This document shows, in pieces, positions 59,017 through 62,000 of a DNA stretch of 64,000 nt. The stretch comes from Escherichia coli (GTDB lineage Bacteria; Pseudomonadota; Gammaproteobacteria; Enterobacterales; Enterobacteriaceae), in NCBI RefSeq assembly GCF_003790525.1, contig NZ_CP033635.1; one strand, 5' to 3'. Both the position numbers and the translations under genes were made by a program. Each line of letters opens with the position of its first letter. Within the stretch, counting starts at the first letter, position 1. A model generated the notes under the pieces. The model made no database searches, had not been told where the DNA came from, and saw nothing but the letters and a program-made list of their open reading frames with translations.

Positions 59017-62000
59017 ATGGACGTCAGTCGCAGACAATTTTTTAAAATCTGCGCGGGCGGTATGGCTGGAACAACAGTAGCGGCATTGGGCTTTGCCCCA
59101 AAGCAAGCACTGGCTCAGGCGCGAAACTACAAATTATTACGCGCTAAAGAGATCCGTAACACCTGCACATACTGTTCCGTAGGTTGCGGGCTATTGATGT
59201 ATAGCCTGGGTGAAGGCGCGAAAAACGCCAGAGAAGCGATTTATCACATTGAAGGTGACCCGGATCATCCGGTAAGCCGTGGTGCGCTGTGCCCGAAAGG
59301 GGCCGGTTTGCTGGATTACGTCAACAGCGAAAACCGTCTGCGCTACCCGGAATATCGTGCGCCAGGTTCTGATAAATGGCAGCGTATTAGCTGGGATGAA
59401 GCATTCTCCCGTATTGCGAAGCTGATGAAAGCTGACCGTGACGCTAACTTTATTGAAAAGAACGAGCAGGGCGTAACGGTAAACCGTTGGCTTTCTACCG
59501 GTATGCTGTGTGCCTCCGGTGCCAGCAACGAAACCGGGATGCTGACTCAAAAATTTGCCCGCTCCCTCGGGATGCTGGCGGTAGACAACCAGGCGCGCGT
59601 CTGACACGGACCAACGGTAGCAAGTCTTGCTCCAACATTTGGTCGCGGTGCGATGACCAACCACTGGGTGGATATCAAAAACGCTAACGTCGTGATGGTG
59701 ATGGGCGGTAACGCTGCTGAAGCACATCCCGTCGGTTTCCGCTGGGCGATGGAAGCGAAAAACAACAACGATGCAACCTTGATCGTTGTCGATCCCCGTT
59801 TTACGCGTACCGCTTCTGTGGCGGATATTTACGCACCTATTCGTTCCGGTACGGACATTACGTTCCTGTCTGGCGTTTTGCGCTACCTGATCGAAAACAA
59901 CAAAATCAACGCCGAATATGTTAAGCATTACACCAACGCCAGCCTGCTGGTGCGTGATGATTTTGCTTTCGAAGACGGTCTGTTCAGCGGCTACGACGCT
60001 GAAAAACGGCAATACGATAAATCGTCCTGGAACTATCAGTTCGATGAAAACGGCTATGCGAAACGCGATGAAACACTGACTCATCCGCGCTGTGTGTGGA
60101 ACCTGCTGAAAGCGCACGTTTCCCGCTACACGCCGGACGTAGTAGAAAACATTTGCGGTACGCCAAAAGCCGACTTCCTGAAAGTGTGTGAAGTGCTGGC
60201 CTCCACCAGCGCACCGGATCGCACAACCACCTTCCTGTACGCGCTGGGCTGGACGCAGCACACCGTGGGTGCGCAGAACATCCGTACGATGGCGATGATC
60301 CAGTTGCTGCTCGGTAACATGGGTATGGCCGGTGGCGGCGTGAACGCATTGCGTGGTCACTCCAACATTCAGGGCCTGACTGACTTAGGCCTGCTCTCTA
60401 CCAGCCTGCCAGGTTATCTGACGCTACCGTCAGAAAAACAGGTTGATTTGCAGTCGTATCTGGAAGCGAATACGCCGAAAGCGACGCTGGCTGATCAGGT
60501 GAACTACTGGAGCAACTATCCGAAGTTCTTCGTTAGCCTGATGAAATCTTTCTACGGCGATGCCGCGCAGAAAGAGAACAACTGGGGCTACGACTGGCTG
60601 CCGAAGTGGGACCAGACCTACGACGTCATCAAGTATTTCAACATGATGGACGAAGGCAAAGTCACCGGTTATTTCTGCCAGGGCTTTAACCCGGTTGCGT
60701 CCTTCCCGGACAAAAACAAAGTGGTGAGCTGCCTGAGCAAGCTGAAGTACATGGTGGTAATCGATCCGCTGGTGACTGAAACTTCTACCTTCTGGCAGAA
60801 CCACGGCGAGTCGAACGATGTCGATCCGGCGTCTATTCAGACTGAAGTATTCCGTCTGCCTTCGACCTGCTTTGCTGAAGAAGATGGTTCTATCGCTAAC
60901 TCCGGTCGCTGGTTGCAGTGGCACTGGAAAGGTCAGGACGCGCCGGGCGAAGCGCGTAACGACGGCGAAATTCTGGCGGGTATCTACCATCATCTGCGCG
61001 AGCTGTACCAGGCCGAAGGTGGTAAAGGCGTAGAACCGCTGATGAAGATGAGCTGGAACTACAAGCAGCCGCACGAACCGCAATCTGACGAAGTAGCTAA
61101 AGAGAACAACGGCTACGCGCTGGAAGATCTCTATGATGCCAATGGCGTGCTGATTGCGAAGAAAGGTCAGTTGCTGAGTAGCTTTGCGCATCTGCGTGAT
61201 GACGGTACAACCGCATCGTCTTGCTGGATCTACACCGGTAGCTGGACAGAGCAGGGCAACCAGATGGCTAACCGCGATAACTCCGACCCATCTGGTCTGG
61301 GGAATACGCTGGGATGGGCCTGGGCGTGGCCGCTCAACCGTCGCGTACTCTACAACCGTGCTTCGGCGGATATCAACGGTAAACCGTGGGATCCGAAACG
61401 GATGCTGATCCAGTGGAACGGCAGCAAGTGGACGGGTAACGATATTCCGGACTTCGGCAATGCCGCGCCAGGTACACCAACCGGACCGTTTATCATGCAG
61501 CCGGAAGGGATGGGACGCCTGTTTGCCATCAACAAAATGGCGGAAGGTCCGTTCCCGGAACACTACGAGCCAATCGAAACGCCGCTGGGCACTAACCCGC
61601 TGCATCCGAACGTGGTGTCTAACCCGGTCGTTCGTCTGTATGAACAAGACGCGCTGCGGATGGGTAAAAAAGAGCAGTTCCCGTATGTGGGTACGACCTA
61701 TCGTCTGACCGAGCACTTCCACACATGGACCAAGCACGCGTTGCTCAACGCAATTGCTCAGCCGGAACAGTTTGTGGAAATCAGCGAAACGCTGGCGGCG
61801 GCGAAAGGCATTAATAATGGCGATCGTGTCACTGTCTCAAGCAAGCGTGGCTTTATCCGCGCGGTGGCGGTGGTAACGCGCCGTCTGAAACCGCTGAATG
61901 TAAACGGTCAGCAGGTTGAAACGGTGGGTATTCCGATCCACTGGGGCTTTGAGGGTGTCGCGCGTAAAGGTTATATCGCTAACACTCTGACGCCGAATGT

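Follow-up and report, generated by a model that had tools for sequence, protein, structure and literature searches.

It is almost certain that the UGA at positions 59602-59604 of fdnG is decoded as selenocysteine 196 (Sec196) by means of a SECIS element, SelB and Sec-tRNA(Sec), giving a full precursor of 1015 residues. The positions are those of the window, which is the whole stretch of 64,000 nucleotides of Escherichia coli DNA that was analysed. The selenocysteine is textbook biology and no new knowledge is added on this point: Sec196 of formate dehydrogenase-N (Fdh-N) and the SECIS elements of the E. coli formate dehydrogenases have been known since 1991, and the structure has been solved. 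The gene is intact, given that the in-frame TGA is a known selenocysteine codon with a SECIS hairpin after it. Judged from the sequence comparisons, there are three independent supports for this reading: the identical codons shared by fdnG and fdoG, the covariation in the upper helix of the hairpin, and the degraded hairpin found in orthologues of the Cys type. The locus is a clean positive control for the scan, and it has a value for annotation, given that a naive ORF caller halves fdnG, or calls it a pseudogene, unless the recoding of the UGA is recognised.

The features of the locus are the following:

59017..62064, plus strand: fdnG, alpha subunit of formate dehydrogenase-N, a single CDS of 1015 codons (reading frame, 1kqf_A, TIGR01553, Pfam, RefSeq)
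59017..59115, plus strand: predicted N-terminal twin-arginine signal peptide region, residues 1-33, with an ALA-QA end (motif by eye)
59602..59604, plus strand: UGA codon 196, read as selenocysteine, the active-site Mo ligand (X at position 196 of 1kqf_A, fdoG, orthologues)
59599..59657, plus strand: SECIS element, Rfam RF01989 SECIS_3, with the hairpin proper at 59605-59647 (covariance model, covariation)
59616..59633, plus strand: upper SECIS stem-loop, the presumed SelB-binding part (covariance-model structure, fold, comparison with fdhF, covariation)
62077..62961, plus strand: fdnH, beta subunit with 4x[4Fe-4S] (Fer4_11 and Form-deh_trans domains, annotation)
62954..63607, plus strand: fdnI, gamma subunit, cytochrome b (Ni_hydr_CYTB domain, annotation)

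Reading frame and identity of the fdnG product

When the sequence is read directly, the TGA is codon 196 of the fdnG frame on the plus strand, and the surrounding region (59590-59660) reads CAG GCG CGC GTC TGA CAC GGA CCA ACG GTA GCA AGT CTT GCT CCA ACA TTT GGT CGC GGT GCG ATG. The mechanical ORF track splits the gene at this codon, and the split described in an earlier note on this DNA was reproduced exactly: one ORF spans 59017..59604 (195 amino acids, with an ATG start and a TGA stop) and the other spans 59653..62064 (803 amino acids). Both pieces are found in frame 1, and not in different frames, which is what the earlier note had named as the finding that would speak against its reading. 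Translation straight through from 59017 to 62064 gives 1016 codons, with the TGA at codon 196 as the only internal stop and a TAA at the end. The length of 1015 amino acids that had been claimed for the joined protein is borne out by the codon count, given that it is the sum of 195 residues, one selenocysteine, the 16 residues from the TGA to the next ATG (HGPTVASLAPTFGRGA), and 803 residues. An in-frame UGA within a coding region, with the frame open beyond it, is also what is expected for a bSECIS.

The joined protein, with an X at position 196, aligns with PDB 1kqf_A over residues 1-1015 with a score of 2395 bits. This chain is titled 'formate dehydrogenase, nitrate-inducible, major subunit' and also has a non-standard residue at position 196, and the next PDB matches are chains titled 'formate dehydrogenase, alpha subunit, selenocysteine-containing'. 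The NCBIfam equivalog TIGR01553 (formate dehydrogenase-N subunit alpha) matches residues 2-1014 on profile positions 1-1009, with 1621.2 bits against a cut-off of 814.2. The Pfam domains of the product are PF04879 (Fe4S4, residues 44-104), PF00384 (molybdopterin, residues 107-589), and PF01568 (MGD-binding, residues 893-1008), and codon 196 falls inside the molybdopterin domain. In E. coli SMS-3-5, RefSeq annotates fdnG as one CDS of 3048 nucleotides, followed by fdnH and fdnI. The identification of the product as the alpha subunit of formate dehydrogenase-N, also made in the earlier note, is therefore upheld by TIGR01553, by the match to 1kqf from end to end, and by the annotation of SMS-3-5. 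It is clear that the operon found in the window is fdnGHI of E. coli. FdnG of K-12 (b1474; PDB 1kqf/1kqg) is the product of the same gene, with 1015 amino acids, a selenocysteine at position 196, a SECIS element, and the same fdnGHI operon.

The translation of fdnG contains the twin-arginine motif SRRQFFK at residues 4-10. Given that the generic Tat profiles score below their cut-offs (12.3 bits against 16.7 for TIGR01409, and 12.8 bits against 22.7 for PF10518), the label 'Tat-exported' for FdnG of the window rests on this motif and on the identity to K-12 FdnG, from which export would be predicted. For K-12 FdnG, cleavage and export by the Tat system are established.

The SECIS element and the decoding of the UGA

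A SECIS hairpin was expected immediately downstream of the TGA, and it was found there: the match to SECIS_3 covers 59599-59657, with the hairpin at 59605-59647, and its score of 84.3 bits is above the curated threshold (gathering score of 63) and extends over model positions 1-59 of 59. The E-value is 8.9e-20 for the 4 kb searched and 1.4e-18 for the whole window, and this is the only SECIS match in the 64 kb. The class SECIS_2 (RF01988, the family of fdhF) was also considered and reaches only 28.8 bits against 70, and for this reason the element was placed in SECIS_3.

The upper stem-loop is formed by GG, the bulged U59618, AGCA(A), the loop G59624 U59625 C59626, (U)UGCU, and CC. This corresponds to an upper stem of 5 bp, a bulged U and 2 bp, with the loop GUC (or AGUCU) and a distance of 19 nt from the UGA to the loop. 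The upper helix begins 11 nt past the UGA. The G of the loop, 20th among the nucleotides that follow the UGA, agrees with the conserved loop G of SECIS elements, reported at 20 nt past the UGA (PMC4605307). The constraints for a bSECIS, as quoted in PMC13188914, are 3-9 nt in the apical loop, 4-16 bp in the upper stem, a distance of 16-37 nt between the UGA and the loop, a G among the first two nucleotides of the loop followed by G or U, and a minimum folding energy (MFE) of at most -7.5 kcal/mol. The fdnG element conforms to all the constraints that are quoted there, in its loop, stem, G-U, distance of 19 nt, and MFE of -14.6. When the Rfam register is applied to E. coli, two pairs of the lower helix are non-standard, A8-C48 and A12-G44 (model numbering).

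The check by RNA folding that the earlier note had proposed for 59605-59650 stood in one part only: the hairpin is seen, but its energy is not distinguishable from that of shuffled sequences. For 59602-59650 the folding energy is -14.6 kcal/mol, with a z of -1.45, and 19 of the 200 shuffles fold as well or better. Given this z value, the fold check alone is unconvincing, and the covariance model and the cross-species covariation were used instead.

In K-12, the alpha subunit of formate dehydrogenase-O is encoded by fdoG, which likewise has a TGA at codon 196 and a SECIS assigned to SECIS_3 in Rfam. Codons 195-217 of fdoG (69 nt) are identical to those of fdnG in the window, although overall the two share only 76.7% of the protein and 74.5% of the nucleotide sequence; fdoG encodes 1016 amino acids and has another locus and another regulation. 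This run of 23 codons from codon 195, which contains the UGA and the SECIS, is the longest nucleotide-identical run of codons between the two genes, the next-longest having 11, and among the codons for identical residues 39.5% differ synonymously. The block of 70 nt with the UGA and the SECIS (59596-59665) is present in 5425 of the 5426 complete E. coli genomes, with a median of two occurrences per genome.

The SECIS at UGA140 of fdhF (formate dehydrogenase-H; Rfam RF01988 SECIS_2) is the experimental model of these elements. The fdhF SECIS has the sequence TGA-CACGGCCCATC-GGTTGCAGGTCTGCACC, and it gave an exact match of 51 nt, annotated as fdhF, in 5418 genomes. Like fdnG, fdhF has the ARV-U-HGP context, the 11-nt spacer, GG, the bulged U, 4-5 bp, and a loop starting with (G)GU. 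The two elements differ in sequence and in the lower stem, and there is one compensatory swap above the bulged U, with U-A in fdhF and A-U in fdnG. Moreover, the FdhF protein is unlike FdnG in that it is cytoplasmic, has 715 amino acids, and is devoid of a Tat signal. The alignment with fdhF and fdoG that had been suggested as a check thus gives a spacing from the UGA to the helix of 11 nt in all of them.

Based on the established mechanism of SelB and the SECIS (PMC4605307, PMC4513850), the complex of SelB, GTP and Sec-tRNA(Sec) would bind the apical part of the SECIS when the ribosome reaches the UGA and would decode this codon as selenocysteine 196. The product would be the full precursor of 1015 residues of the catalytic alpha subunit of the nitrate-inducible formate dehydrogenase-N, and Sec196 would be expected, also from established knowledge, to ligate the Mo of the bis-MGD cofactor, where formate is oxidized. 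Ribosomes that do not recode the UGA would terminate with RF2 and leave a useless fragment of 195 residues; for fdhF, the recoding efficiency in vivo is reported to be 30-40% (PMC4513850). For the fdnG of K-12, binding of SelB and insertion of selenocysteine have been reported (Berg et al. 1991 J Biol Chem 266:22380, as cited in PMC13188914). The tRNA-Sec sequence matches a gene annotated as such in 5424 of the 5426 complete E. coli genomes, a set that lies apart from the source strain. No tRNA genes were found in the 64-kb window. The tRNAs that adjoin fdnG in two other loci (L020 and L080) were considered as tRNA-Sec, and they are instead tRNA-Leu and tRNA-Gln.

Orthologues with selenocysteine or cysteine

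The codons for A-R-V-Sec/Cys-H-G-P were searched in 100,044 species genomes with the pattern GCN CGN GTN TGH CAY GGN CC, which leaves all columns of the element beyond 14 free, and at least 120 matches were obtained. Among the 120 matches listed, 81 are of the FdnG type by the context of the downstream protein (77 with TGA and 4 with TGY), 19 are of the FdhF type (9 with TGA and 10 with TGY), and the remaining 20 are chance matches without the context of a formate dehydrogenase. The 77 listed FdnG-type genes with TGA come from many phyla. The presence of TGA and TGY at one column is, as read from these aligned codons, the classic signature of a Sec/Cys pair. In the listed orthologues, the stretch of 16 codons that separates the TGA from the next ATG codes for the strongly conserved HGPTVxxLxPTFGRGA.

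The covariation was evaluated with 55 distinct 66-mers of the Sec type taken from the listed matches. Given that the FdnG-type region has no indels, these sequences align without gaps, and the alignment was anchored on the codons and not fitted to the structure. When the Rfam structure is placed on this alignment, 97.1% of the cells of the upper helix are paired, and four of its seven pairs have changed on both sides, with variants such as AGCA/UGCU, GGCA/UGCC, GGCC/GGCC, GUCC/GGGC, CUCC/GGGG, and GGCG/CGCC. Over the structure as a whole, 90.5% of the cells are paired, 44 cells are doubly changed, and the covariation score is 0.223; pairing, double changes and score all exceed those of 500 out of 500 shuffles and of every slid register. 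All 55 Sec-type sequences have the bulged U, and 53 also have the G-U loop, the two exceptions being Desulfovibrio-type sequences with a different element.

The Cys-type FdnG orthologues among the listed matches are four, one from Snodgrassella, two from Vogesella, and one from an Orbaceae. They retain on average 3.5 of the seven upper pairs, and a GU loop is present in only one of them. None of these four loci gave a match in the SECIS_3 search, whereas four of the five Sec-type controls did, with 68.6-85.9 bits (Pseudomonas, Photorhabdus, Paracoccus, and an acidobacterium); the fifth control, the Desulfovibrio-type locus L042, has no SECIS_3 match. This ties the hairpin to the UGA, given that it is lost in the Cys-type orthologues while four of the five Sec-type controls keep the match.

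The lower helix has 85% of its cells paired, with 7.75 of nine pairs in the Cys-type sequences versus 7.67 of nine in the Sec-type sequences. This pairing may simply reflect the conserved HGPT and FGRG codons, which from the alignment is probably the case. Since it is equally paired in the Cys type and falls on these codons, the lower helix was not counted as evidence.

Some of the swaps in the upper helix alter the protein, from V-A-S-L-A to V-S-S-L-G: the residues Ala202 and Ala205 of E. coli (GCA...GCU) are Ser and Gly (UCC...GGC) in other lineages. Given that the swaps in the helix alter residues, the RNA imposes covariation on the amino acids, and this illustrates across species how an RNA element within a gene keeps synonymous sites frozen and even makes amino acids covary.

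The claim that the TGA is a selenocysteine codon and not a break of the gene is thus sustained by the SECIS_3 match, by the non-standard residue 196 of 1kqf_A, and by the TGA of the orthologues, and two other readings have to be weighed against it. If the TGA were a genuine stop, fdnG would be a pseudogene by nonsense mutation, or it would give rise to two proteins of 195 and 803 amino acids, as the two pieces of the mechanical ORF call and the normal role of UGA as a stop in table 11 would have it. This is extremely improbable, given that the same TGA is shared by codon 196 of fdoG, by essentially all the 5425 E. coli genomes and by the 77 listed FdnG-type genes, and that the 16 codons which would then be intergenic are conserved as a protein sequence. 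Furthermore, a single Pfam domain (107-589) bridges the break, the SECIS scores above its curated threshold, and no terminator-like or promoter-like sites were found in 58700-59800. The solved structure 1kqf is one chain of 1015 residues, and a full-length FdnG containing Se has already been reported in K-12 (Berg et al. 1991, as cited in PMC13188914; PDB 1kqf).

In the second of these readings, a suppressor or a near-cognate standard tRNA, for Trp or Cys, reads the UGA instead of Sec-tRNA(Sec), with a hairpin that only slows the ribosome; low-level read-through of UGA does happen in E. coli. The unremarkable folding energy of the hairpin would also be in line with it. Nonetheless, the hairpin agrees with the fdhF SECIS and with the description of SelB binding in its loop G-U, its bulged U and its spacing of 11 nt, and its loss in orthologues with a Cys codon links it to the decoding of the UGA. 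Given also that tRNA-Sec is nearly universal in E. coli and that selenocysteine is named in the PDB entries, read-through of this kind has hardly any chance of being the explanation, and decoding as Sec196 by SelB and the SECIS is the preferred reading, against which no observation of substance stands.

Sequence conservation and variation around the element

The conservation is wider than the hairpin. In 72 Sec-type loci among the listed matches, the core of 66 nt is 85% identical to the window, versus 66-74% in the flanks. In 16 of the listed loci, from several genera of Enterobacterales, the core is 100% identical and the flanks are 75-83% identical, these 16 having been picked for the identity of the core, in which columns 1-14 are fixed by the search pattern. 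Between fdnG and fdoG, the block of identity at codons 195-217 (59599-59667) extends about 20 nt past the 3' end of the hairpin. It is considered unlikely that the freeze beyond the hairpin reflects something more than the binding of SelB, such as an added function at the RNA level (e.g., ribosome pausing or the kinetics of SECIS refolding) or a recurrent gene conversion between fdnG and fdoG.

With respect to K-12, five residue differences from 1kqf_A are present in the approximately 990 aligned residues shown (E66/D, D127/E, F342/L, A366/E, and A666/S), and none of them lies in the UGA or in the SECIS. Over 58800-62200, the displayed identity to E. coli SMS-3-5 and to seven further genomes is 100.0%, which corresponds to approximately one mismatch over 3401 nt. 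This mismatch, a single nucleotide polymorphism (SNP) at 59214, changes Asp66 of FdnG to Glu (GAA, 59212-59214). This residue is Asp in nearly all the FdnG-type proteins examined, and the 5396 E. coli records contain no Glu66 allele. Identity of the window to SMS-3-5 was considered and is ruled out by an IS1 insertion and two SNPs, one of them that at 59214. The IS1 has 768 bp, lies at 38854-39621 with a target duplication of 8 bp, and is present in the window and absent from SMS-3-5.

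Coding sequence around the selenocysteine codon of fdnG

The base-pairing of the SECIS hairpin leaves its mark on the protein sequence. The stem covariation site corresponds to columns 21-33 of the ungapped alignment of Sec-type FdnG segments (window 59619-59631), which encode residues 201-205 of FdnG. Enterobacterales have V-A-S-L-A at these residues, whereas Burkholderiales and Pseudomonas have V-A-G-L-A; among alpha-proteobacteria and Acidobacteria the sequence is V-S-S-L-G. This amino-acid covariation is forced by compensatory changes in the SECIS stem.

The segment around the UGA is also identical between the two paralogues: all 69 nucleotides of window 59599-59667 are the same in K-12 fdoG (15173-15241 of locus L002, minus strand). 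The identical stretch extends approximately 20 nucleotides beyond the 3' end of the hairpin and contains the unusually rare codons GGA, CCA, ACG, GTA, AGT, and CTT. This identity could be the result of selection at the RNA level or of gene conversion.

In Orbaceae bacterium ESL0727 (locus L063, around 1011-1080), fdnG is Cys-type, with a TGT codon in place of the TGA. This gene retains a GUCA/UGGC mini-helix with a loop starting with G-U, but the GG/CC pairs at the foot of its upper helix have been lost. The mini-helix may be left over from a recent conversion from selenocysteine to cysteine.

A possible substitution at codon 66 of fdnG

Codon 66 of fdnG (window 59212-59214) is GAA, coding for Glu. 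The base at 59214 differs from that of SMS-3-5, of K-12 (structure 1kqf), and of all E. coli records containing the 61-nucleotide segment used for the comparison (5396/5396), where the codon is GAT, coding for Asp. Asp is likewise found at this position, within the motif SLGDGAKN, in nearly all of 70 FdnG-type proteins of other species that were listed out of 74 extracted. Glu66 is either an error of sequencing or a conservative change, private to this sequence, of a conserved residue.

Genomic surroundings and differences from SMS-3-5

Other features of the window
3148-3211, minus strand: RydC sRNA (Rfam, 92.5 bits)
3771-3922, minus strand: sok antitoxin RNA, hokB locus (Rfam, 105 bits)
About 15250-16580: IS4 family transposase inside ydcO (SMS-3-5 record 1746052-1747380)
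38854-39621: IS1 element, 768 bp, GGTAATGACTCC...GGCAGCATCACC
38846-38853 and 39622-39629: 8-bp target-site duplication AAAAAATA flanking IS1
About 45.5-53.5 kb: narU-narZYWV, second respiratory nitrate reductase operon
56546-57646, minus strand: intact porin gene, 366 aa ('ompC' by PGAP in SMS-3-5)

Upstream of fdnGHI, at a distance of about 6 kb, is the nar operon; therefore, Fdh-N, the electron donor of the formate-nitrate respiratory loop, and an acceptor enzyme of that loop are encoded close together. The porin gene is placed between yddG and upstream genes for leucine-rich-repeat proteins (about 53-55 kb); at its position K-12 presumably has just the degraded remnants yddL/yddK/yddJ. According to the SMS-3-5 annotation, the window also contains hicAB, ortT, and the higA-like yddM, and the IS4 family transposase that breaks ydcO (BenE-family transporter) into two pseudogene fragments is common to that strain.

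IS1 is missing from SMS-3-5 and disrupts a GGDEF-domain gene (homologue of ECSMS35_RS08675). Its junction region is covered to at least 80% in just 1 of 5426 genomes, with an extra ISAs1 in that match, which places the source strain outside the collection. A second SNP relative to SMS-3-5 is found at 44569 (T in the window, C in that strain). Apart from IS1, 44569, and 59214, the window is identical to SMS-3-5 across 64 kb.
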